From positions 548,919-612,918 of the forward strand of contig JAHPZA010000003.1 of NCBI GenBank assembly GCA_019058445.1: 64,000 bases of DNA. Direction: 5' to 3'. Source of the DNA: Promethearchaeota archaeon (GTDB lineage Archaea > Asgardarchaeota > Lokiarchaeia > Sigyniarchaeales > SOKP01). Each line of letters opens with the position of its first letter. The stretch's first letter is position 1. The position numbers and the translations under genes were made by a program. The notes under the pieces are model-generated. The model was given only the letters and a program-made list of their open reading frames with translations, did not search any database and was not told the DNA's origin. This document shows, one piece after another, positions 50,703-64,000 of this stretch.

Positions 50703-52124
50703 TTAGCCGCTATTTCGGGAATTTAGAATTTGTGCCCTTTCAGAAAGAATTTTACTAATATTTTGGTGATCTTCTTCAAAATATTTTAATGCAAGAACCC
50801 ATAACAAAATTCCCGGTATTGCAATTACTCCAATTAATATAGCCACTAATTGATAATCATAGCCAGTAATAGAAATCAATATTCCTGCGATTAAAGGTCC
50901 GGAACCAAAAGCTATTGTTTCTAACAAACGATTCCAAGATGTTATTTGTCCTTGTGCCTCAGGTAAATTAATATCTTGTAAAACTGGTGGTTGATTTATC
51001 TCATATAATGAAGAAATCGCCCTAGAACTGAGATAAATACAACCAAATAACCATATAACTGGAAAAGAGAACAGTAAAGCAATATCTTTTCCCTGTTCTA
51101 CCGTTAAATAGGGTAATGGGAGAAAAAACATAATAACGAAGGCAAACGCACCGTATGATAGGGCTACAATAATAAAATACAACCGGCGTGTATGGTTTTC
51201 TTGCGATACTTTATCAGAAAATCTCGCTAAGATTACTTGACCGATGACTCCCCCGCTTAGCCCAAAGATTGCTAAAAAAACACCTGTAGCGAAGGGTGAA
51301 AAATTATGAGGTTCTGTTTGCATATAGGGGAGAATTATAATTATTAAACTTCCTAAGAAAACGCTAGTAAAAATACCCTCGATCAAAGCAACCAAATTTG
51401 TCTTACTCAACATTGTTTTTTTCATCATTTCCCTATCAATTTGAAAATCGTATTTCACGGAATCTTTCTTAAGCACATCCAATAACTCTTTATGTTGGGC
51501 ACCCCTTTTAGGTTCTTTTATTTTGAAAACCATTATCACTCCTGAAATTAAAATTGCTAAACCCATTCCACTAAAGACAAGTCTCCAAAATCCAATTTGG
51601 ACTAGATAGCCTGCAATCACAAAACCAACTAATTGAAAAGAATGTCTCGAAACTGAATAGATTCCAAAGAATCTTGAACGATGTGTTTTCGGTATAATAT
51701 CATTAGAAAGTGAAATTACACTAGTATAATTTCCTCCTGCGAAGAATGCAAATATCATTATAAAGAAAAAGAAATACCACCAAGTTTCCATTCCCCTACC
51801 TTCATTAGCAAAGCTCAGCATAATAAAGCTAAAACCTCTAGCAAGAGCTACTATGAAAAGAATGTATGTGCGTTTAAAATTATGATTATCTATAAACTTG
51901 CCAAAAAACACCCCAGATACCGAGGTTACCCACAACATTGATGTGATGAGAAGTCCCATTTCAAAGGCATGAAACGGTTCTCCGGGCCAAAATAAAAAGG
52001 ATAAGGGAACAATTAGAATGAATATCCCGCTAAATGACATAGAAAAAAATCCAGTTAAAACATAGAAAGGCCATATCGTTTTAACAAGATTAAAATCAGA
52101 ATCTTCGTGATTTTTATTAGTCAT
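50703..52124 (-). CDS. MFS transporter
   Basis: About 12 TM segments; NDIIPKTHRSRFFG, EPKRG, DINLPEAQGQ. Confidence 0.85.
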   Translation of the reverse strand: MTNKNHEDSDFNLVKTIWPFYVLTGFFSMSFSGIFILIVPLSFLFWPGEPFHAFEMGLLITSMLWVTSVSGVFFGKFIDNHNFKRTYILFIVALARGFSFIMLSFANEGRGMETWWYFFFFIMIFAFFAGGNYTSVISLSNDIIPKTHRSRFFGIYSVSRHSFQLVGFVIAGYLVQIGFWRLVFSGMGLAILISGVIMVFKIKEPKRGAQHKELLDVLKKDSVKYDFQIDREMMKKTMLSKTNLVALIEGIFTSVFLGSLIIIILPYMQTEPHNFSPFATGVFLAIFGLSGGVIGQVILARFSDKVSQENHTRRLYFIIVALSYGAFAFVIMFFLPLPYLTVEQGKDIALLFSFPVIWLFGCIYLSSRAISSLYEINQPPVLQDINLPEAQGQITSWNRLLETIAFGSGPLIAGILISITGYDYQLVAILIGVIAIPGILLWVLALKYFEEDHQNISKILSERAQILNSRNSG

Positions 52125-52233: not shown

Positions 52234-52629
52234 CTACATTGTTTCTCGATAATAGACATAGATGTTAAGCACTGTTAATACGATAAGAATTGCATTAGCA
52301 ATCCAAGTCCCTACTTGAGCTGTTGCTGTACCTGGAATCGCGAATGCGCCCCATATACCTATGATTACCATTAGGATTAACCATATGATTGCAATTTCCC
52401 AAAATATTTTTGCCTTTTCTAAATCATCTCGCTTAATAGCCAGTACGTTACCAATTCCGAGAACTAAAATACTTGCCCCAACTTGCCGTAGATTGATCGG
52501 ATTAAATATTTCTGCTTCGGTTATTTGAGCATATGTATCTGGGATTACTAAAAAAAGAAACGCATAAATAAAAGCGGGAATTGCATTGATAATAAATACA
52601 ATTTTTACTTCCTTTGAGAGTTCTGCCAT
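52234..52629 (-). CDS. Small 4-TM membrane protein (paralogue of 55681-56076)
   Basis: MAELSKEVKIVFIINAI...FLVIPDTYA...FNPINLR; four hydrophobic helices; ATG 52629 chosen by comparison with the paralogue. Confidence 0.8.
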   Translation of the reverse strand: MAELSKEVKIVFIINAIPAFIYAFLFLVIPDTYAQITEAEIFNPINLRQVGASILVLGIGNVLAIKRDDLEKAKIFWEIAIIWLILMVIIGIWGAFAIPGTATAQVGTWIANAILIVLTVLNIYVYYRETM

Positions 52630-52901
52630 ATAATTTACCATTTCTTTATTTTTTACAATTTTTTATTGGAATTTCCTTTTCGAAAAGATAGCTAATTAAT
52701 TTAGGAAAGAATTTTATATAAATTTTACAGATCTGTCAATTTATCAAAAAATACTTATTCAAGTTTATGGGCACACTAAAATGTTGGTTGTGAGAGAAAA
52801 ATAATAAGGATGGAGGAGTAGTTCCTATTTTTATATTTATGTTTTTAGTCAATTTAAAAAAAGTTAACAATCTCATTATCTTTATGCTACAATTTAAAAA
52901 A

Positions 52902-55595
52902 ATGGCTCAAGACAAATTAGGTTTAAACGAGACTGAAGCGCTCTGCTATGAACTGCTTCTTATTAAAGGTAAACTTACTGCTGGAGAAGTCTGTATTTAC
53001 GCTAAGCTTGATGAAGAAACTGATTATGAGACAATTAAGGGAATATTGCATAACTTTGTTGAGAGAGGTCTTGCGCAAAAACTCCCAAAAGCTAAGGGAT
53101 TAGTCGATATTTACACGGGAGTTCCTCCGTTTGAAGGATTAATAAACCATTTAGACGATTTTTCCAAAGAGATTGGAGATCTGAAGAAAGAAATCGACAC
53201 TTCCTTGCAAAATCTTAGAGAGGAGGCGCAAAAAGAGGTATCAGAAATCCGTACCAATGTAGAGACAATAATTAATGATGAGAAAGCTGCTATTGATAAT
53301 GGCGTTTCTCAAACCAATATCACTTTATCTCAAATTGTTGAATCTTCTACTTCAGAATATACTGGAGCTTCAGATAAAAGCAAGCAAAAAGTCGAGGAGA
53401 TTACCAATACATCAAAAGCAAAAATTGGAGTAGATTTAGAGAAATTCGAGAAAGCGAGTGTAGATAATATTAACATATTTAAAGAAGAATCAATAAATCG
53501 GGGCAATGAGGCAAAAGATACAATTATTAGTAAATTTGGAGGTTTAGATGAGGAAGTAAAGAATCTATTCACCCTTTCAAAAGACAACTTTGCTAGTACA
53601 TTAAATTCAGCTAAAGATAAATCCATTGCTGATAATAATTCACAACAAGAACAATCCTTGGAGAAAATAAATAATTGGAAAACTGAAACTTTTACTGAAT
53701 TTGAGAATTTGTCAAAAACAACAGGAGATCAATTAGATATAAATCTAAGCAATTTGAAAACAAAAAATCTAGAAAATGCAAAAACACTTAAAGAAAGAAT
53801 AATAGAGCAAAGAAACAGTTTTAAAACAAACATCGATAATAATATTACTTCAAGCCGTGATAAATTAAACGAAACCCTCACAAAGCTCGGTGACGAGGCT
53901 GTAAAGAATTTATCAGAACTTCAAAATGGGCTATCACAAGCATTAGAACAAGGAAATTCAACGTTAAACAGCACTTTAGAGCAGCAGAAAAATTCTCTTA
54001 ATGAATATCTCACTCAAACTTCTACTGATTTAAATTCCAGTTTCAATAATCAAATTACCTCCCTAGATTCGGGCCTAAATGAACAAAAAGATGATTTTAG
54101 CAGCAAAATGAATGACCAATTAGTAAAATTCTTAGAATTTGGAAAAACATTTTTCAATGAAACCAGAGATCAATTCGCAGGTAAAATTAAATCTGTTATT
54201 GAATTTGTCAAAGAAAAGTTTAAAGAATTTAAAGTGGCCACTCAAAATCAGTTTGATACAATCAAGAGCGAGGTAGATACGAAATTTAATGAATTCTCAG
54301 GAAATGTTGCTACTGTTATTGAGAACCTAAGAGAATCGTCCTCATCAAGCATGGAATCAATTGGAAATGAAGTGAAAGGGAAATCGACTCAATTTACTGA
54401 TGAAGTAAAATCGCAGCAGGGAGCTTTGTTAGAAAACCTTGAAAAAGAACTTGCTCAAAATTCAAACAATTATTCTAATCAATTGGATACCGATTTATCT
54501 GAAATCGAAGTGGGTACTGAGGGCGCTTTAAATGAAACAAAAGCAAGTTTGGAAAAGACGATTACAAAATCAAAAGATATAATAAGTGAAATAATTACTA
54601 AGGTAAGTACTGGATTTGAGGTTTTAGCCAAAACTTTTGAGGAAAAAACAAGCAGTAAGGCAGAAGCCGTGATTACAGAAATTTCGACAAAATCGGATGA
54701 AACAGAAGGGAAGTTGACAGATTCTATTGCAAAAGGGACAGAAATTAGCACTGAACACTTTTCAAGTTTCATAAAGAATCTTGAGAGCCCAATCAACTCA
54801 GTTAATGAAAAACTCGGAGCGTCAGTGAATTCATCAAAATCGAGTATAGATTCAAACCTGGATTTATTAATGCAATCCTACTTAGAAACTATTGGTGCTG
54901 CAGAAGATAATTTTGCATCATCCGTTAATGGATTAAAAGAAACTCTTCCAAGTCAAATAAACAGTATCAATTCAGAATTTCAAGGTTCTACTGATAAAGT
55001 TGGGAATGATACTATTAATAAAATTGATGCTCTCACAAATCAAATGTTAGAATCATTTGATAATGCTGTTGCGGGAGTTTCAGATCCCGTGAATAAAGCT
55101 GTTGAAATTGCGAATAACGGAAAAGCTACTTTCGAAAACATTTGGAGTGATGTGAAATCAATGGAGCTTCTCACAGCAGAAGGGACATGGCAGATTGCAA
55201 CACAATACACGATTATGGCTTATCTCGAGGCTATGATAAAAAGGACAAAAGCACATCTATTAATTGTAGTTCCCACTATGTCATTATTACCTCTAAATGC
55301 CATATTAAAGACTAAAATGATGCAAAAAATTACCATTGCATGCAAAATAACTGATAAAGAAATGGCCAACAAACTTACTGCAAAAGACAACGTAGATCTA
55401 CGTTCTATAACCGAGATGATTGTCTCCGCTATAGGGGCCAATCGAGATCAAGAAGAAGCTTTTTATGGACCCTATACCGAAAATCCAAAAGAGATGGTCT
55501 GTACGATAACCCAACAAGACGAACTCATCAGAATAATTGCTGAAATGCTGTCAAGCTTTTACAGAGGTCGTTCAGTAAAATATACTAAAGATTAA
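52902..55595 (+). CDS. TrmB-type wHTH, ~650-aa helical rod with 11-residue repeats, and a TrmB-sensor/PLD-like C-terminal domain
   Basis: LGLNETEALCYELLL..GKLTAGEV...LVERGLA...YTGVPP (TrmB HTH); long Pro-poor amphipathic region; C-terminal IKRTKAHLLIVVP...ANRDQEEAFYG. Confidence 0.75.
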   Translation: MAQDKLGLNETEALCYELLLIKGKLTAGEVCIYAKLDEETDYETIKGILHNFVERGLAQKLPKAKGLVDIYTGVPPFEGLINHLDDFSKEIGDLKKEIDTSLQNLREEAQKEVSEIRTNVETIINDEKAAIDNGVSQTNITLSQIVESSTSEYTGASDKSKQKVEEITNTSKAKIGVDLEKFEKASVDNINIFKEESINRGNEAKDTIISKFGGLDEEVKNLFTLSKDNFASTLNSAKDKSIADNNSQQEQSLEKINNWKTETFTEFENLSKTTGDQLDINLSNLKTKNLENAKTLKERIIEQRNSFKTNIDNNITSSRDKLNETLTKLGDEAVKNLSELQNGLSQALEQGNSTLNSTLEQQKNSLNEYLTQTSTDLNSSFNNQITSLDSGLNEQKDDFSSKMNDQLVKFLEFGKTFFNETRDQFAGKIKSVIEFVKEKFKEFKVATQNQFDTIKSEVDTKFNEFSGNVATVIENLRESSSSSMESIGNEVKGKSTQFTDEVKSQQGALLENLEKELAQNSNNYSNQLDTDLSEIEVGTEGALNETKASLEKTITKSKDIISEIITKVSTGFEVLAKTFEEKTSSKAEAVITEISTKSDETEGKLTDSIAKGTEISTEHFSSFIKNLESPINSVNEKLGASVNSSKSSIDSNLDLLMQSYLETIGAAEDNFASSVNGLKETLPSQINSINSEFQGSTDKVGNDTINKIDALTNQMLESFDNAVAGVSDPVNKAVEIANNGKATFENIWSDVKSMELLTAEGTWQIATQYTIMAYLEAMIKRTKAHLLIVVPTMSLLPLNAILKTKMMQKITIACKITDKEMANKLTAKDNVDLRSITEMIVSAIGANRDQEEAFYGPYTENPKEMVCTITQQDELIRIIAEMLSSFYRGRSVKYTKD
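53916..54146 (+). repeat. Protein-level 11-residue (hendecad) periodicity
   Basis: ELQNGLSQALE/QGNSTLNSTLE/QQKNSLNEYLT/QTSTDLNSSFN/NQITSLDSGLN/EQKDDFSSKMN/DQLVKFLEFGK: position 6 is always L/F, position 10 mostly L/F/M. Confidence 0.75.
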
Positions 55596-55680: not shown

Positions 55681-56076
55681 CTATTTTAAATCTCTATTAT
55701 AGAAATAGGCGTTAAGTATAATTAATACGATTAGTATTATACTATCAAACCACGTTGTTTGTGTATATGTAGGAGAAAGTGGAAGTACAATTAATTCCCA
55801 TATGTTTAGCGCAAGGATTACAACACACCACAATATTGCAAATTCAATTATAAATTTGACCTGTTCGACTTCTGCTCTCTTTAAAGCAATCAGAGCCATA
55901 ATAGCAAGCACTAAAAGTGTTCCTCCAAATGCCCTCCAATAGTAAGGATCAAACACTAATGGATCGACTAAACTGGCATAGGTTTCCGGGATTACTAAAT
56001 AGAGAAATGTAAAGATAAGCGCGGCAATAGCATTAATAATTAACACTATTTTCACTTCTTTTGATATTTCTGCCAT
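55681..56076 (-). CDS. Small 4-TM membrane protein (paralogue of 52234-52629)
   Basis: MAEISKEVKIVLIINAI...YLVIPETYA...FDPYYWR. Confidence 0.8.
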   Translation of the reverse strand: MAEISKEVKIVLIINAIAALIFTFLYLVIPETYASLVDPLVFDPYYWRAFGGTLLVLAIMALIALKRAEVEQVKFIIEFAILWCVVILALNIWELIVLPLSPTYTQTTWFDSIILIVLIILNAYFYNRDLK

Positions 56077-56456
56077 TTATAAAATCATCTCTTGAGATTT
56101 TTAAAGTATTTATTGGATTTGGTTTTTTTAAAAAGATTTAATGTAATATTAGATGGATGTTTATTTATATATTTTTAAAACTTTAAGAATAAACCATCAG
56201 AAATTTGGAAAAAATGAGAATTTTACATTATTTCTGATTAATTTTATTCTTTAAAACAAAATGTTAATAAATTAATTATTTTAATATCTTGAAAGTTAGA
56301 AAGTCTAATAAATCATTATCCAAAGAATTATATTTCTAAAAATAAAAGAAATCATGATAAGCTGCTTTTTGATAAGGGTGAATAAATATTTCTTGAATTA
56401 AACCCGATTCAATTAGTTTACCAAAATTCTGCTAATTTTGAAAAAATGTGAATATT

Positions 56457-57497
56457 ATGAAGAATAAATGGATTTTGTATGGAGCATATGGATATACAGG
56501 GAGATTAATAGCTGAAGAAGCATTATTAAGAGGTCATAGACCTGTATTAGGAGGCCGTTCTAGAGAAAAACTTATACCCTTAGCGAAAGAATTGAATTTA
56601 GATTATAGAATATTTAATTTAGAAAATAAAGAGAACCTATATAAAACGATTTCAGAATTTGATTTGGTTTTTCATGCTGCAGGACCTTATATCCATACAA
56701 GTAAACCAATGGTTCAAGCATGTTTAAAAGCAGGAATAAACTATTTGGATATAACTGGTGAAGTACCCGTGTTCGAACAGAACTTTAGATATGATGAGGA
56801 GGCCCGTGAAAAAGGGATTGCTATAATTTCAGGAGTAGGATTTGATGTTGTACCCACAGATTGTATGGCAAAGTATGTAAGTGAACAAATTAGTAATCCA
56901 TCGCAGTTAGAACTTGCTATTGCTGGTGAAGGAGGGATAAGTCCTGGTACCCTTAAAACAATCTTCGAACATATTTCTACAGGAATATTAATCCGTGAAA
57001 ATGGCCAACTTAAAAATATATCTCTTGGAAAGGGAACACGTGAAGTGACTTTCTCTGATAGAGTACGAGAAGTAACACCAACAGTCTGGGGAGATCTAGC
57101 CTCTGCTTATCTTACAACAGGAATTCCGAACATAAGTGTTTATATGCCTTATTCGAAAACTCTTGGAGATTTAATGAAAGCCACAAGGTTAAAGAAAGAT
57201 AGAGTTAATGAGTGGATCGAAAAAAATATTCAAGGACCTGATGAGTTTACAAGAAACACCGCACGATCATATATATGGGCTCAAGTAACTAATAATAATG
57301 GTCAAGAGGCTCAAGCTTGGTTAGAAACAATGGAAGGTTATAAATTTACTGCTCTTGCTAGTGTAAGGAGCGTTGAAAAAGTTTTTGAATTATCTCCGAA
57401 AGGTGCTTTAACTCCTGCTTTAGCATTTGGAAAGGACTTCGTTCTAGAACTCCCCGAGACAAAGCGTCTCGATAATATTGAAATATTGGTAAATTAA
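56457..57497 (+). CDS. Saccharopine-dehydrogenase-like NAD(P)-binding oxidoreductase
   Basis: LYGAYGYTG, GGRS, AAGPY, YLDITGE, GVGFDVVPTD, GALTPA. Confidence 0.88.
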   Translation: MKNKWILYGAYGYTGRLIAEEALLRGHRPVLGGRSREKLIPLAKELNLDYRIFNLENKENLYKTISEFDLVFHAAGPYIHTSKPMVQACLKAGINYLDITGEVPVFEQNFRYDEEAREKGIAIISGVGFDVVPTDCMAKYVSEQISNPSQLELAIAGEGGISPGTLKTIFEHISTGILIRENGQLKNISLGKGTREVTFSDRVREVTPTVWGDLASAYLTTGIPNISVYMPYSKTLGDLMKATRLKKDRVNEWIEKNIQGPDEFTRNTARSYIWAQVTNNNGQEAQAWLETMEGYKFTALASVRSVEKVFELSPKGALTPALAFGKDFVLELPETKRLDNIEILVN

Positions 57498-57618
57498 GTA
57501 AGATTTTTCGTTTTTTTCCTTATTTTTTTGTTATAGTTTATTTGAATAGTGTTAAATTGTTTCGAATCTATAATTTCTTAATAGCTATCTTTAAACATAA
57601 CTTTATAGTTGGTTCAAT

Positions 57619-58470
57619 ATGGTTTTCGAAACTCTACTATTTGAATTAAGGGATGATGGGATCGGTATTTTGACACTCAACCGACCTGACAACTTAAATG
57701 CAATGTCCTTTCAAATGTTTGAAGATCTTAACCACATTTTTGATGATTTGATGATAAACTTAGATTGCAGAGTTGTCATCTTAAAGGGTCAAGGACGGGC
57801 TTTTTGCGCCGGTTTAGATTTAAATGAAATGAATGTGTTGAATACTAGAAGAAAACCAGAGGAATACAAGAAATTTTATTATTTAAATATTCCCGAAGTA
57901 TTAAAAAACAGAGTTTACTTTCAATCAAGGTTAAGTCGAGTGATTATGAAAATGAGAAAAATCAGCCAACCAATAATTTCTATAATACATGGTCCAGCTA
58001 CGGGTGGTGGATTTGCACTAACTTTAGCATCTGACATAAGAATTGCAGGAGAAAAAGCAAAATTTAATAATGCGTTCATTAAATTAGGGCTTTCTGGATC
58101 TGATGTGGGTACTAGCTATTTTTTACCTCGTCTCATTGGAGTATCTAGAGCTACGGAAATTCTGTATACTGGTAGATTTGTCGATGCCGAAGAAGCAGAG
58201 CGAATAGGTCTTGTTTGCAAAGTGGTAAACGGGAATCAAAATGATTTATTAGCTGCTGCAATGGAAATTGCCGAAGAACTACTCACCAAAAGTCCACTCG
58301 GATTAAGAATGACAAAAGAGGCTATCAATTTATCTCAAGATTCACCGAGTTTGGAAACAATGATCCAGTTAGAAAATCGAGCACAAATGATAGCTAGTGC
58401 ATCAAATGATGTGTTAGAGGGTATGTTAGCCTTTTTTGAAAAAAGAAAGCCGAAATTCCCTAAGCTTTAG
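57619..58470 (+). CDS. Enoyl-CoA hydratase/isomerase family protein (tandem copy 1)
   Basis: LNRPDNLNA, FCAGLDL, HGPATGGGFAL, SDIRIA, SYFLPRLIG. Confidence 0.92.
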   Translation: MVFETLLFELRDDGIGILTLNRPDNLNAMSFQMFEDLNHIFDDLMINLDCRVVILKGQGRAFCAGLDLNEMNVLNTRRKPEEYKKFYYLNIPEVLKNRVYFQSRLSRVIMKMRKISQPIISIIHGPATGGGFALTLASDIRIAGEKAKFNNAFIKLGLSGSDVGTSYFLPRLIGVSRATEILYTGRFVDAEEAERIGLVCKVVNGNQNDLLAAAMEIAEELLTKSPLGLRMTKEAINLSQDSPSLETMIQLENRAQMIASASNDVLEGMLAFFEKRKPKFPKL

Positions 58471-58568
58471 GAATGCTTTAAACAAATGAATCTTTAAAAT
58501 GTTTGAAACTTTTAATTAAAACTATAGGATATAATCCTTATAAAAAAAATGTAGAAATTGATAAAAAT

Positions 58569-59429
58569 ATGGAACTTGAAACTCTATTATTTGAATTGAG
58601 GGATGATGGTATTGGGATTTTAACTCTCAACCGTCCTGAAAAATTAAATGCTATGAACTTTCAAATGATTGAAGATCTTCATCAAATATTCGATAATTTG
58701 ATAGTGAATTTAGATTGCCGGGTTTTAATTTTAAAAGGTGCTGGAAGGGCGTTCTGTGCAGGATTAGACCTAAGAGAGTCTGCAATACTTCAAACGAAGA
58801 AAAAACCCCCGGAACTGAAAGAAAAGTTTTTCTATGCAAGAGCTCCTGATAAGGACATAATTAAAGCAAAAATGTATGGCCAATGGAGAACTTCTCATTT
58901 AATTCCTAAGATGCGAAAAATCAGCCAACCCATTATAGCAGTTATTCATGGTCCTGCTACGGGAGCGGGATTTACATTTGCTTTAGCCTCTGATATTCGA
59001 ATTATAGGTGAGAATGGAAGGTTTGCTAATTCTTTCATAAATATTGGATTTTCAGGATCAGATTTGGCCAGCAGTTACCATCTACCTAGATTAATAGGTA
59101 TGTCCCGAGCTGCCGAGATTTTATATACTGGACGATTTGTTAATGCCGAAGAAGCCGAAAAAATAGGGCTAGTTTTTAAGCTAGTAAAAGGTGATGAAAA
59201 TAAATTATTAGCAAGTGCAATGGAAATTGCTGAAGAACTTCTTACAAAAAGCCCACTAGGCCTTCGGATGACAAAAGAAGCTATTAATTTAACTATGGAT
59301 TCACCCAGTTTAGAGACCATGATGCAAATAGAAAACCGATCACAAATGCTTTGCTCAACTTCTGCAGATCTTATGGAAGGAATAAATGCTTTCTTTGATA
59401 AAAGGAAGCCTAAATACCCAAAGTTATAA
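58569..59429 (+). CDS. Enoyl-CoA hydratase/isomerase family protein (tandem copy 2)
   Basis: Same motifs; ATG 58569 (MELETLL) aligns with the paralogue starts. Confidence 0.92.
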   Translation: MELETLLFELRDDGIGILTLNRPEKLNAMNFQMIEDLHQIFDNLIVNLDCRVLILKGAGRAFCAGLDLRESAILQTKKKPPELKEKFFYARAPDKDIIKAKMYGQWRTSHLIPKMRKISQPIIAVIHGPATGAGFTFALASDIRIIGENGRFANSFINIGFSGSDLASSYHLPRLIGMSRAAEILYTGRFVNAEEAEKIGLVFKLVKGDENKLLASAMEIAEELLTKSPLGLRMTKEAINLTMDSPSLETMMQIENRSQMLCSTSADLMEGINAFFDKRKPKYPKL

Positions 59430-59449
59430 TAAATCAAGAGGGATGAAAT

Positions 59450-60295
59450 GTGGATTTAGAAACTATGAAATTTGAACTGCGCGATAATGGGATAGGAATC
59501 CTCAGTCTCAACCGCCCAGAAAAATTGAATGCGATTTCATTTCAGATGGAAGAAGATTTCCATCAAGTTTTAGATCATTTAATGGTGAACTTGGATTGTA
59601 GAGTTCTTATACTGAGAGGAGAAGGGCGAGCATTTTCTGCGGGCACAGATCTTCAAGAAGGATTAACGTTAAATTCTAAAAAAACCCCCGAGGGGTATGA
59701 TAGATTCTATTTTTTAACCGTAAAGGAACCTATAAAAAGGAAGATGTATCATCAATGGCGCATTACTCAAATTATTGTTAAGCTACGCAAAATATCACAA
59801 CCCATTATTGTTCTTGTTCAAGGAGCAGCAGCTGGCGGAGGGCTTGCTTTCGCATTGGCATCAGATATAAGAATTGTAACGAAAGATGCAAAATTTATTA
59901 ATGCTTCAATCAATATTGGGCTTACAGGAGCTGATATGGGGGGGAGTTATTTTCTTCCCCGATTAATTGGAAGAGCTAGAGCTTCTGAAATTCTAATGAG
60001 TGGTAGAGTTGTTGATGGGATTGAGGCAGAAAGCATAGGATTAGCAGTAAAACTCGTCGATGAGGCAGATTTGTTAAATACTGGACTAGAAATCGCAGAG
60101 GAACTATTAACTAAAAGTCCACTCGGATTAAGGATGACAAAAGAAGCTATAAATCTTTCTTTAGATTCCCCAAGTTTAGAAAATATTGTTCAGTTTGAAA
60201 ATAGTTCAATTATGATTACATTTTCCTCCAAAGACGTCAATGAAGCTTCAAGTGCATTCTTTGAAAAAAGAAAACCGAAATATCCATTAAAATAA
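59450..60295 (+). CDS. Enoyl-CoA hydratase/isomerase family protein (tandem copy 3)
   Basis: LNRPEKLNA, FSAGTDL, GAAAGGGLAF, SYFLPRLIG. Confidence 0.92.
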   Translation: MDLETMKFELRDNGIGILSLNRPEKLNAISFQMEEDFHQVLDHLMVNLDCRVLILRGEGRAFSAGTDLQEGLTLNSKKTPEGYDRFYFLTVKEPIKRKMYHQWRITQIIVKLRKISQPIIVLVQGAAAGGGLAFALASDIRIVTKDAKFINASINIGLTGADMGGSYFLPRLIGRARASEILMSGRVVDGIEAESIGLAVKLVDEADLLNTGLEIAEELLTKSPLGLRMTKEAINLSLDSPSLENIVQFENSSIMITFSSKDVNEASSAFFEKRKPKYPLK

Positions 60296-60403
60296 TCTTT
60301 TCTTTAACAACTTGAAAAAACTTTTTTTTGATCGATAAACATTTTATATGCTCTTTTTCAACGATCAGTTATAACTAATTCAACTTAAAAAGGTAGATTA
60401 TAA

Positions 60404-61519
60404 ATTACATCAAATAAATTATGGTATAAAGTGGCTAGAGCAATAATTAAAGCTGGCAGTTTACCCATCCCGATTGTGGATACCTTTTATGAATTACTTA
60501 AGCTATTATTGACTGAAGAGCAAGCCGAGTTTATCTTGATATTTAGCAAAAAACCATCGCTAAATATGGATGAAATTAGAAGTAAAACTGACTTAGATGA
60601 TAATGCGATACATAAAATGCTGAATGATTTAATGTATAACGGCATAATTACAGGAACACGTAGTAATCGTTCTGGAATTAGAGTTTATCGGTTATTACCT
60701 CCATTTCCAGGGATTTTTGAAGCCCAATTTATGAGGGGAGAGAGGGGAGAAAAACAAAAGAATTTAGCGAGAGTATTTGATAAGTTATTCGATGATTGGA
60801 GTAGCGGTATTCAAATGAATTATGATAATATGATCCCTCAATTTAAAAATGCACCTCCAATAAATAGGATTGTCCCGGTTGAAGAGGAAATAGACATAGG
60901 AAATGAAACCGTACTACCCTATGAAGTTGTCCAAAATATTATAGGGCGGCATGAATTTATTGCTGTAACAAATTGCTATTGTCGTCATGAGAAAAGTCTT
61001 ATAAATGAGCCATGCAAATTAGATGCTCCAATACAAAATTGCCTTTTGTTTGGGAAAAACGCTCAATTCTCAGTAGAATACGGGTTTGCTAAGCAAATAT
61101 CTAAAGAATCAGCTCTGAAAATATTAAAAGAAGCAGAAGATTATGGCCTCGTTCATAAAGCATTTCATACCCACCAAGATATAGAAAGAGGTGAGGAGGC
61201 CATTTGTAGCTGCTGCAAGTGTTGCTGTGGCGTATTTCAACTCCATTATAAAGGGGTTGCTCCAATCCATACTGTATCTTCCTATATCGTAATGTTAAAC
61301 AAAGAAAAGTGCATTGGCTGTGGGATGTGTATAGAAAAATGCCCCATGGAAGCAATTAATTGGTACAATTCAGATGTAGAAATACTTGAAAATAGATGTA
61401 TTGGTTGTGGTGTATGCGCCTACCATTGTCCTGAAGACGCACTCAAATTAGTAAAAATTCAATCAAGAAATATATTTATTCCCCCTCCAAAACTTCTTAA
61501 AGAGTTAAATAATCTTTAG
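60404..61519 (+). CDS. Cys-rich 4Fe-4S-binding protein with an N-terminal wHTH-like region
   Basis: NCYCRH, GLVH, ICSCCKCCCG, CIGCGMCIEKCP, CIGCGVCAYHCP; start at GTG 60431 or possibly ATT 60404. Confidence 0.85.
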   Translation: MTSNKLWYKVARAIIKAGSLPIPIVDTFYELLKLLLTEEQAEFILIFSKKPSLNMDEIRSKTDLDDNAIHKMLNDLMYNGIITGTRSNRSGIRVYRLLPPFPGIFEAQFMRGERGEKQKNLARVFDKLFDDWSSGIQMNYDNMIPQFKNAPPINRIVPVEEEIDIGNETVLPYEVVQNIIGRHEFIAVTNCYCRHEKSLINEPCKLDAPIQNCLLFGKNAQFSVEYGFAKQISKESALKILKEAEDYGLVHKAFHTHQDIERGEEAICSCCKCCCGVFQLHYKGVAPIHTVSSYIVMLNKEKCIGCGMCIEKCPMEAINWYNSDVEILENRCIGCGVCAYHCPEDALKLVKIQSRNIFIPPPKLLKELNNL

Positions 61520-61665
61520 TTTCCAGTATACTTGAATCTTATTGATTAAATATTTCAAATCTCTTTTTTTTCCAACTGATAACAACTTGTATTTGATCGA
61601 ATAATGTTTAAAAAGTGTGAATATTGTTTTTCTCAAATTCAAGATATAAAATAAAATGAATAAAT

Positions 61666-62601
61666 ATGGGAATGTTAGAAGATAAGGTTGCTATTATAAC
61701 TGGTGCTGCCCGAGGGATAGGGCGGCAAGAAGCACTAAGTTTTGCGAAAGAAGGATGTCATCTTTTAATTAATGATTTAGGGTGTTCTCTAGACGGTTTT
61801 GGAAGTGAACGAATTGCAGATAACATTGTTAAAGATATAAAAAAAATTGGGGTTAAAGCAGTTGCTAATTATGACTCTATTTCAAACTTTCAAAAAGCAA
61901 AAGAAGTAGTAGATCAAGCGATTTCTGAATTTGGTAAATTAGATATTGTAATCAATAATGCAGGAATTTTAAGAGATCGGATGAGTTATAATATGACCGA
62001 AGAAGAATGGGATGATGTTATATCAGTTCATTTAAAGGGAACTTTTAATATGTGTCGGCATTCTGCTGCCTATTTTAGGGAACAGGGAAAGTCAGATAAA
62101 AAATTTTCTGGCAGAATCATTAATGCGATTTCAGATGCGGGAGTATTAGGAAATCTTGGGCAATTAAATTATGGAGCCGCCAAGGCTGGAATTGCTGCAA
62201 TGACTTTAATATTATCTAGGGAATTAAAGAAATATGCTACTGTCAATAGTGTAATTCAAATAGCAAGAACCAGATTCACCTTAAACTCTAGTGCGCAAAT
62301 TGCTAGACTTATGAACAAAAAGGATGAGAAGGGTTTTGATATATTTGATCCTGCTAATGTTATTCCAATTGTAATCTTTCTTGCTTCGAATAAAGCTAAA
62401 AAGATTAGTGGAGAAGTATTTCGAATTGCAGGTGATAAATGCTGGATTTTACGGGGATGGCATTCTGTAAACCGAATAGATAATAATAGTAAAGCGTTTT
62501 CTCCCCAAGTTCTTGGTGAAAGAATAAAACAAGAATTATTAAAAGGTATTCCCAAAAAAGAGACAGTGATGGAAATCTTTAGTCAATTGGTAAATATGTA
62601 A
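61666..62601 (+). CDS. Short-chain dehydrogenase/reductase (MFE-2-like 3-hydroxyacyl-CoA dehydrogenase type)
   Basis: TGAARGIG, INDLG, NNAGILRD, VHLKG, NYGAAKAG. Confidence 0.92.
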   Translation: MGMLEDKVAIITGAARGIGRQEALSFAKEGCHLLINDLGCSLDGFGSERIADNIVKDIKKIGVKAVANYDSISNFQKAKEVVDQAISEFGKLDIVINNAGILRDRMSYNMTEEEWDDVISVHLKGTFNMCRHSAAYFREQGKSDKKFSGRIINAISDAGVLGNLGQLNYGAAKAGIAAMTLILSRELKKYATVNSVIQIARTRFTLNSSAQIARLMNKKDEKGFDIFDPANVIPIVIFLASNKAKKISGEVFRIAGDKCWILRGWHSVNRIDNNSKAFSPQVLGERIKQELLKGIPKKETVMEIFSQLVNM

Positions 62602-62611
62602 CAAGATTAAT

Positions 62612-63496
62612 CTATTCAAAGGCACTAAATATCCATAAATTTAGAAATTTTTTTCTTAGTTCTAAGGCTAATTTTGGATCTAAGACATTCAAACACGCGA
62701 AAATATCTGAAGGATTTAACGGATTTTGAAGTTTTAAAATTACCCTTTCCTTATCAAATATATCGTAGAAAGTGGGTATTCTTTTAAAAGTATATTTTAT
62801 CTCCAAACCATTTTTTTTTGGAGATATGTTAAAGAAATCTTCAAATTTGCTAATAAATTCATTAAATAGCTTTATATTATTTAATTCATTCTGCTCAGGT
62901 GAGATTTCTTGATCCGGGTCAAACGAACATAAATATTTTATATTAACACCCCGATCTAACACCGTAGACATCTCTTTAATAATACGTTTTAAGAAGGGAA
63001 GTCTTTTAACCGAATTAGGGTTTAAAGAAACATTTATTAATAATTCTTCCTCTAATTCCTTTATACTATTAATATAAAGGGATTCAATGGAAATATAGCC
63101 TAAGGCTGTAGACCAAAAAACTCTTGAGGTTTCACTTCTCTTCATTAAATCAGATTTGTATAAATCAGATTCTAATTTTTTTGCTATATTTATTAAGGAA
63201 GTAATTTTTCTCTGATTTTCTTCCGTTAAATGAGAGATTAAATTGTGAAACGCTAGATTCGGAGGGATGGCTATATATTTTTTTGGTCGAGATTCTTGAA
63301 TTCTTATTAATCCCTTTTCTTTTAAGTCTTCTAGTACTTCATAGATTCTTCCACCTGGAACACTTGATCTTTTACTTATTTCTTTAGCTGTTAAAATATT
63401 TGTAGGTAATAGTGAGATATAAGAAGCTATAGCATATGAGGATAACTTCATATTTTTTAGAAATTCCTTTAATTCTTCAATTAAATTATTATCCAT
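62612..63496 (-). CDS. TrmB family transcriptional regulator
   Basis: LSSYAIASYISLL...TAKEISKRSSVPGGRIYEVLEDL..KGLI...RPKKYIAIPP; C-terminal YDIFDKERV effector domain. Confidence 0.9.
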   Translation of the reverse strand: MDNNLIEELKEFLKNMKLSSYAIASYISLLPTNILTAKEISKRSSVPGGRIYEVLEDLKEKGLIRIQESRPKKYIAIPPNLAFHNLISHLTEENQRKITSLINIAKKLESDLYKSDLMKRSETSRVFWSTALGYISIESLYINSIKELEEELLINVSLNPNSVKRLPFLKRIIKEMSTVLDRGVNIKYLCSFDPDQEISPEQNELNNIKLFNEFISKFEDFFNISPKKNGLEIKYTFKRIPTFYDIFDKERVILKLQNPLNPSDIFACLNVLDPKLALELRKKFLNLWIFSAFE

Positions 63497-63693: not shown

Positions 63694-64000
63694 ATGATCG
63701 AATTTGTAAAATCACTAGATTTATCGGATAAAGCAATCTCTCTTTATCAAGCTCTTTACGGTAAAAATCCATTAACAATTAATGAAATACATTTATTAAA
63801 ACCTAAGTTGTCAAAAAAAGAGCTAATTGAGATTATTAATGAATTGTTTCAAACAAAATTATTAATTAAAATCAGTTCTAAGGATGCTTCAATTATAGGG
63901 CATTATATTGCGATACCACCATTTTCTATTTTAGGTGATTTAGTTTCTCAAATTAAAGATTCGCTCGTTGGAAAAGAAGGATCTGCCACGAAATTTGAAA
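63694..64000 (+). CDS. 5' part of a TrmB-wHTH protein, probably a paralogue of 52902-55595; runs off the window
   Basis: MIEFVKSLDLSDKAISLYQALYGKNPLTINEI...IINELFQTKLL...HYIAIPPFSIL; ATG 63694 preceded by GGGAG. Confidence 0.7.
   Translation, partial: MIEFVKSLDLSDKAISLYQALYGKNPLTINEIHLLKPKLSKKELIEIINELFQTKLLIKISSKDASIIGHYIAIPPFSILGDLVSQIKDSLVGKEGSATKFE

Follow-up and report, generated by a model that had tools for sequence, protein, structure and literature searches.

A TrmB/TrmBL2-like protein of Asgard archaea with a hendecad rod of about 675 residues between its end domains

The 64,000-nt stretch of a Promethearchaeota archaeon genome analyzed here (contig JAHPZA010000003.1, positions 548,919 to 612,918 of the forward strand; in the following, the window) contains a gene on the + strand, probably 52884 to 55595, for a protein whose end domains resemble those of TrmB and TrmBL2 and whose middle is a helical rod with an 11-residue (hendecad) period. 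The explanation that we consider best, and to which we give an even chance as a whole, is that of a cytoplasmic TrmB/TrmBL2 family member in which the pairing helix has grown into a folded hendecad rod of about 675 residues, used as a spacer or tether that is anchored at the head. Where one amphipathic pairing helix used to join the winged helix to the PLD-like C-terminal domain, there would now be a hendecad (11/3) helix of this length, which most likely turns at a conserved aromatic FGK motif at the exact midpoint of the rod. The two halves would then most likely pair antiparallel, as a coiled coil of two strands that is essentially straight and measures about 50 nm. Such pairing would unite the winged helix and the C-domain as a TrmBL2-like head, following the arm plan of SMC and Rad50 without their ATPase. 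Less securely, the C-domain may pair one head with another, as it does in TrmBL2, with nucleic acid or a partner bound by the heads. The rod may then be a rigid spacer or tether, and its variable tip may make contact with, e.g., a second tip, a membrane or a filament.

Both end domains are TrmB/TrmBL2-like, in agreement with the original prediction, which had been made by a model from the letters of the DNA. Residue numbers are counted from position 52902 (protein P0003, 897 aa). Residues 1 to 77 (52902 to 53132, + strand) form an extended winged helix-turn-helix (wHTH) of the TrmB type, which ends with YTGVPPF. The Pfam model TrmB (PF01978) matched residues 5 to 63 with 26.1 bits, just above the cut-off of 25.6, and was found in 35 of the 39 members of the rod family. 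A profile built from 14 N-termini was compared with the PDB and placed TrmBL2 first (E 3.1e-9, 92 residues aligned including the start of the helix) and TrmB second (E 5.7e-9); the next match was a MarR protein (E 1.6e-3). In the AlphaFold2 (AF2) model, DSSP assigned helices to residues 10-22, 27-33 and 39-55 and strands to residues 58-63 and 68-73.

The C-terminal end (residues 753 to 897, 145 aa; 55158 to 55592, + strand) is a PLD-like alpha/beta domain of the TrmB/TrmBL2 type without an HKD motif, identified by AF2, Foldseek and VIA-align. Its AF2 model, based on an alignment of 16 sequences, reached a pLDDT of 90.8. Foldseek ranked TrmBL2 first (E 2.7e-9), followed by the sugar-binding domain of TrmB (2f5t, 1.2e-7) and then by proteins of the PLD superfamily. 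With VIA-align, Z values of 16.2 (root-mean-square deviation 2.2, 131 residues) and 15.3 were obtained for TrmB 2f5t and TrmB 3qph, 15.0 for NucT and about 14.4 for TrmBL2. The catalytic motif of PLD enzymes, HxK(x)4D, is absent from the C-domain, where the sole histidine, H785, has no x-K after it. The domain was matched by none of the Pfam or NCBIfam models in the library copies used, and the comparison of its sequence with the PDB returned nothing relevant. Conserved motifs are TW, RTK, IVVP and GA(N/D)RDQEEAFYGP; the invariant polar ones among them, TW, RTK and RD.EE..YGP, suggest a conserved binding surface.

The plan of the TrmB family consists of an extended wHTH, a dimerisation helix and a domain at the C-terminus, and only TrmB and TrmBL1 carry an additional sugar-binding domain (PMC4877046). 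The rod protein ends at the PLD-like domain, and the further sugar-binding subdomain of TrmB/TrmBL1 is not present. Since both ends match TrmB/TrmBL2 and the chain stops after the PLD-like domain, the protein can be described as a TrmBL2-type protein with a helix lengthened about twenty-fold. It shares with TrmBL2 (PDB 5bpd, 5bpi, 5bqt, 5box) the extended wHTH, the amphipathic helix, the PLD-like C-domain and the lack of the sugar-binding subdomain. However, TrmBL2 is a protein of only about 264 aa whose pairing helix spans a few tens of residues, and the identity between the two proteins is 12-14%. With TrmB (PDB 3qph, 2f5t) it has the wHTH in common, and the PLD-like N-subdomain of the TrmB effector domain is the best VIA-align match; unlike TrmB, it lacks the C-terminal beta-barrel sugar-binding subdomain and has the rod inserted. 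As in the TrmB family, an amphipathic helix directly follows the wHTH, here from residue 78, but it runs over 675 residues.

This rod (residues 78 to 752) contains 3 prolines, at residues 630, 683 and 729, and thus is the nearly proline-free middle part that had been predicted. Its hydrophobicity shows one sharp Fourier peak at 3.67 residues with a power of 652, compared with a maximum of 125 in 200 shuffles and with powers of 14 at 3.5 and 18 at 3.6 residues; the period is hendecad and not heptad. About 62 successive 11-residue rows carry Leu, Ile, Phe or Val at row positions 3, 6 or 7, and 10 or 11, which are the a, d/e and h core positions of a hendecad. A single +1 register slip occurs near residue 529. 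To our knowledge, about 62 unbroken hendecads are exceptionally long and place the rod among the longest coiled coils of this kind. Among the open reading frames (ORFs) of the 4.6-Mb genome, those of the rod protein and its paralogue have by far the strongest hendecad signal. In the full-length AF2 model, helices span residues 78-410, 416-585 and 590-752. According to Fourier analysis, stacked rows and AF2, the N-terminal arm (residues 78-410; 53133 to 54131, + strand; about 30 hendecads) is one continuous predicted helix, and the C-terminal arm (residues 416-752; 54147 to 55157, + strand; about 31 hendecads) consists of the other two. The aromatic motif KFLEFGKTFF in the middle of the rod (residues 409-418; 54126 to 54155, + strand; conserved in P0003 to P0006) is the proposed apex of a hairpin. 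Tetrabrachion has a hendecad coiled coil with the same a-d-e-h core. This core, with 3.67 residues per turn and a straight or slightly right-handed course, is also found in the hendecads of rotary-ATPase peripheral stalks (PMC6131620, PMC3293630). Both systems are much shorter than the rod protein, are parallel and carry other end domains.

The composition of the rod fits a two-stranded coiled coil and argues against a helix that coats membranes or lipids, because the hydrophobic seam is narrow, the interface shows no enrichment in Lys and Arg and the rod carries a strongly negative charge. In numbers, the seam takes about 3 of 11 positions and is made of large aliphatic and aromatic residues (Leu, Ile, Phe), the share of Lys and Arg at the interface positions 2 and 4 is 16% and 8%, and the net charge is -41; Ser, Asn, Thr, Glu and Lys are abundant. 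An apolipoprotein-like lipid-binding sensor had been one suggestion of the original prediction. In a reading of this type, an amphipathic helix of the apolipoprotein, perilipin or LEA kind would rest along the surface of membranes or lipid bodies and pass their lipid state on to the head. The Pfam model Apolipoprotein (PF01442) does match with 99.2 bits against a cut-off of 90, as it does in 39 of 39 family members, and an 11-residue period is typical of such helices; apolipoproteins A1, A4 and E and apolipophorin III (PF01442, PF07464) have an amphipathic period of 11 or 22 residues. We attribute the match to periodicity and composition. Besides having a narrow seam and an acidic charge, the rod lacks the 22-mers punctuated by proline and the class A helices with Lys/Arg at the interface, is flanked by TrmB domains and belongs to a protein which is not secreted. 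The lipid reading is therefore disfavoured, and we regard it as very improbable.

For the rod itself, we consider it rather probable that it is folded back, or at least that it is antiparallel and symmetric about its midpoint. KFLEFGKTFF is the only segment of the rod that is conserved among orthologues. The only central break of the helix in the AF2 model is at residues 411-415, with pLDDT values below 50 at 413-415, and the geometric midpoint of residues 78-752 is residue 415, with arms of 333 and 337 residues. Rod prolines cluster at a relative position of 0.40-0.50 (29 of 134 in 40 non-redundant family members); elsewhere about 5 are found per bin of 0.05, apart from the junction of rod and C-domain. 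Several paralogues carry Pro-rich or acidic loops exactly at the midpoint, so that the tips vary from the aromatic one found here to these loops. In addition, 11 mirrored proline sites (x, 1-x) were counted where 6.8 ± 2.05 were expected (p ~0.04), and the direct-shift control gave 0.

Differences in length are balanced between the arms. Compared with this protein, the homologues of L003/L004 have insertions of 11 residues at 279 and of 8 residues at 557, those of P0007/P0008/L009 have +33 and -33 residues in each arm, and P0013 has a net gain of 59 residues in each arm; the remaining extra residues of all of these sit at the centre of the rod. A central unit of 105 aa, composed of a helix, an F..FGK.FF-like motif, a second helix and an NPNL-like junction, is present once here, in two tandem copies in P0005 and in four in L008, where the homologue (L008:3510-7157, - strand; G276) shows autocorrelation peaks at offsets of 105 and 210. 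The apex is the centre of these duplications, and each new midpoint falls on a Gly/Pro unit junction, GLGNNPNLE in P0005 and AEPNL in L008. They support the fold-back, because only duplications that are symmetric about the tip leave the arms equal. Two predictors also place the end domains side by side, since the alignments of both join the termini: in the full AF2 model, residues 24-77 and 759-897 co-align in single rigid-body superpositions, and in the Atlas ESMFold model of P0004, residues 6-900 align onto TrmB-like proteins of 265-295 aa.

Of the two lengths named in the original prediction, about 50 nm for a hairpin and about 100 nm for an extended chain, the evidence from midpoint, prolines, indels and models favours the former: at 0.15 nm per residue, the fold-back pairing of arms of 335 residues corresponds to about 50 nm. 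An extended parallel dimer of about 100 nm was our initial reading and was demoted to a rival after the midpoint and indel tests. In such a dimer, which we now consider unlikely, two chains in register would place both winged helices at one end and both C-domains at the opposite end, and tetramerisation of the C-domains as in TrmBL2 would lead to a DNA-DNA bridge of about 200 nm. It would be in line with the role of the helix after the wHTH of TrmB/TrmBL2, which promotes dimer formation (PMC4877046), and with a hendecad seam that is unbroken across about 62 repeats. However, it needs neither the Gly turn at the midpoint nor the Pro-rich or acidic loops of the paralogues at this place, and neither arm-balanced indels nor apex-centred duplications.

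Several observations weigh against the folded rod, and some of them in favour of the parallel dimer. The full AF2 model is of moderate quality (pLDDT 70.9, pTM 0.36), and monomer predictors fold long amphipathic helices back by default, so that the hairpins of AF2 and ESMFold could be artefacts of predicting a monomer. When the mirror symmetry of hendecad strength was analyzed in 38 proteins, no preferred centre was found: symmetry centres fell within 0.47-0.53 in 8% of the proteins compared with 13% expected. The mean mirror correlation was 0.025 compared with -0.067 for the direct shift (Wilcoxon p 0.011), but the z value was not significant, and we did not count this correlation as support for a hairpin. 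The placement of the indels is soft, as it depends on MAFFT alignments of repeats with 25-35% identity. Finally, the symmetry would be the same if extended chains formed an antiparallel homodimer instead of a single chain folding back.

With the folded rod, the protein would resemble the arms of SMC, Rad50 and MukB, in which a head is formed from both ends of the chain, an intramolecular antiparallel coiled coil extends over about 50 nm and the chain turns at the tip. The predicted SMC-like scale is supported, and so is the absence of an ATPase; no ATPase family was among the Pfam or NCBIfam matches of the rod protein. The statement that Walker motifs are lacking has to be modified in its wording: a literal GxxxxGKS string (GNEVKGKS) is present in the rod helix at residues 488-495 (54363 to 54386). 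We regard it as a chance match, since G is replaced by E in the 78% identical P0004. Foldseek aligned the complete model over its whole length with Smc5/6 (866 columns, E 7.6e-4) and with condensin; E values were about 1e-3. The likeness is, on our comparison, one of form and not of homology. Unlike SMC and Rad50, the protein has no ABC ATPase head, its period is hendecad and not mainly heptad, and there is neither a hinge domain nor a CxxC zinc hook; the proposed tip is a turn of 5 residues in KFLEFGKTFF. Cysteines occur only at residues 15, 31, 814 and 867. KfrA of plasmid RK2 and TlpA of Salmonella can also be likened to the rod protein, since they combine a DNA-binding N-terminal domain with a long alpha-helical coiled-coil tail. 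However, they are bacterial and shorter, with parallel tails and no PLD-like domain.

The rod architecture is conserved in nearly all Asgard genomes. The original prediction had proposed to survey them, and matches to the C-domain profile were present in 381 of the 400 genomes taken from the phylum of the window (~95%), among them 87 of 90 high-quality genomes, and in 81 of 85 genera. Each genome has 1-9 copies, mostly in open frames of 600-1800 aa, and about 1100 matches were listed. A search of 1.84 billion representatives with the C-domain returned 81 clusters at E<1e-3. Among the long matches, which are proteins of 350-1800 aa, nearly all carry the C-domain at the extreme C-terminus, and almost all long proteins of the family have their strongest period at 3.65-3.68 residues, many together with an N-terminal wHTH. 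Rod lengths range from about 330 to 1500 residues. Named members come from Promethearchaeota/Lokiarchaeota (including Ca. Harpocratesius repetitus), Helarchaeota, Thorarchaeota, Hodarchaeota and Atabeyarchaeia, and the look-alike clusters in the Atlas are all from Promethearchaeota. In the sources, the members are named only 'hypothetical protein' or 'helix-turn-helix domain-containing protein', and the literature searched holds no description of the family. A search for related loci from one alignment returned only 6 close orthologues. The genome of the window (4.6 Mb, 10 contigs) encodes two rod members and four further proteins with the C-domain but without a hendecad rod. The second rod paralogue (G000:C10:567314-569569, + strand; L029:8315-10570) has 751 aa, a wHTH with a net charge of -5 and a hendecad power of 251. 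The Pfam annotation of P0004 includes PF28217.1, which may be a recently curated model for a part of the family.

DNA binding by the head is doubtful, and the case for it is weaker than homology implies, because the wHTH is acidic, helix 3 is without its R-x-Y, and the orthologue group of this protein lacks the Arg of the wing as well. The wHTH of the rod protein has a net charge of -3 and an isoelectric point of 5.0; the median charge in the family is -1, with 80% of the members at or below 0. Helix 3 begins with ETDYETIKGIL, and at the place of a basic helix-3 start (R-x-Y) the protein reads LDEETDYETIKGIL; EETDYE occupies the position of PRTY in TrmBL2, which is thus acidic here. Most ordinary TrmB paralogues encoded by this genome have a net positive wHTH and start helix 3 with a basic residue and Tyr (e.g., GRIY, RTTIY). 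Arg-Tyr of the wing, retained in most family members, is Ile-Tyr in this protein. All of this weighs against the part of our explanation that concerns DNA, and the DNA-binding tether of the original prediction, a proposal made from homology only, is weakened by it.

A serious rival is that the rod is folded in the same way but does not bind DNA, its head being re-used as a module for a protein or ligand. The protein would then be a cytoplasmic structural element, a ruler or a scaffold, which could be linked, e.g., to the cytoskeleton or to membrane remodelling. We hold this to be possible, at a level clearly below our preferred explanation. The acidic wHTH and the lost R-x-Y speak for it, as do the strongly conserved polar motifs of the C-domain, which suggest a binding site, the ruler-like differences in rod length between paralogues and the near-universal occurrence of the family in multiple copies. 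In addition, six genomes (G123-G128; loci L010, L012, L013, L016, L017 and L020) have a STAND-type NTPase (AAA_16, ATPase_2) with TPR/SNAP-like repeats (625-650 aa) upstream of a rod homologue of 1048-1130 aa. The two genes share a strand, are no more than 20 nt apart or overlap by 7 nt, and form a tight, translationally coupled operon; a protein of about 305 aa with V4R and Roadblock/LC7 domains adjoins the pair. This operon hints at a partner system in the G123-G128 clade; in the genome of the window, blastp found no homologue of the NTPase-TPR protein. On the other hand, the nearest relatives at both ends bind DNA, the Arg-Tyr of the wing is kept in most members, a Lys-rich wing insert (QKLPKAKG) is present in this orthologue group, and there is no known partner.

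The wider form of our preferred reading, in which all Asgard archaea would possess several paralogous ATPase-free rods that resemble SMC arms, carry TrmBL2 heads and act as tethers of fixed length (25-110 nm) between the nucleoid and, e.g., a second DNA segment, membrane or cytoskeleton, is about as tentative as that rival. Thermococcales have TrmBL2 as one of their major chromatin proteins, and here a head of the same type carries a rod of SMC dimensions. According to a 2025 paper (PMC11840125), chromosome domains made by SMC in Thermococcales are shaped by a roadblock protein. If the head binds DNA, the rods would be ATP-independent long-range tethers in a lineage ancestral to eukaryotes; if it does not, they would be a universal structural element of Asgard archaea. 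If the tether reading is true, the nearest prokaryotic kin of eukaryotes would organise their chromosome or cell at a level that has so far gone unrecognised. In either case, the paralogues form a natural series of rod lengths which is useful for the biophysics of coiled coils. New points of the present analysis are the acidic winged helix without R-x-Y, the apex-centred 105-aa duplications, the STAND-TPR operon and one negative symmetry test.

The rod gene belongs to a single ORF on the + strand (52839 to 55595 in the ORF list of the window). Its true start is probably the ATG at 52884 (MLQFKK...), because the N-termini of homologues in the alignment read M[EL]QFKK[IL]A.DKLGL; position 52902 is the following ATG. 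The whole gene would thus extend from 52884 to the stop codon at 55593-55595, as supported by the ORF list, the translation and the homologue N-termini. The stretch TTTTTATATTTA is located 45-56 nt upstream of 52884 and could be an archaeal TATA box. The G+C content of the gene is about 32%, as in the remaining window.

TrmB regulators usually adjoin transporter genes that they control. It could therefore be assumed that the rod protein is a TrmB-type regulator of nearby genes whose rod senses temperature, crowding or another state, and indeed both rod paralogues of the genome adjoin an MFS transporter gene, located at 50703 to 52124 (- strand) next to the rod gene of the window and, as a sugar-type MFS_2 transporter, 165 nt upstream of the second paralogue on the same strand. 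However, these two MFS genes are unrelated, the genome contains at least 25 MFS genes and the adjacency is absent in other genera, i.e., it is lost outside the genus; we regard it as probably due to chance. Near-universal conservation with variable rods would also be atypical for a local regulator, and the recognition helix is acidic, so that we consider this role improbable. Across the family no neighbouring gene is conserved, and flanks are kept within the genus only, which is a point against our preferred tether reading as well. Two small membrane proteins, of 135 aa (52234 to 52641, - strand) and 131 aa (55681 to 56076, - strand), are paralogues of each other (46% identity, E 1e-34) and bracket the rod gene on the opposite strand. 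In two genomes of the same genus, both copies (L005) or only one (L006) are present.

An ordinary TrmB protein encoded at 62612 to 63496 had been predicted to have the same two end domains as the rod protein. This is correct for the N-terminal part, a clear TrmB wHTH followed by a pairing helix. The shared C-domain fold is unsupported: the C-domain of this protein is Pfam DUF7436 and shows no profile similarity to that of the rod protein (hhalign probability 0.1%). The same probability of 0.1% was obtained with hhalign when the C-domain of the rod family was compared with those of nine ordinary TrmB paralogues of the genome; sequence alone thus fails to connect the two groups of C-domains. Another protein, of 802 aa, begins at 63694 (+ strand), is open at its 3' end in the window (63694 to 64000) and continues to G000:C3:615020. 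It has a TrmB-like wHTH, a rod-family C-domain at residues 268-459 and then about 340 further residues, and its strongest period is 3.61, without a long hendecad rod. With this gene, three TrmB-like genes are located within 11 kb.

Downstream of the rod gene, three tandem genes for enoyl-CoA hydratase/isomerase proteins were found at 57619 to 60295 (+ strand). They are preceded by a gene for a saccharopine-dehydrogenase-like NAD(P) protein (56448 to 57497) and followed by genes for a 4Fe-4S protein and a short-chain dehydrogenase (60431 to 62601). Judged by these annotations, the genes from 56448 to 62601 look like a cluster for fatty-acid or acyl-CoA metabolism.

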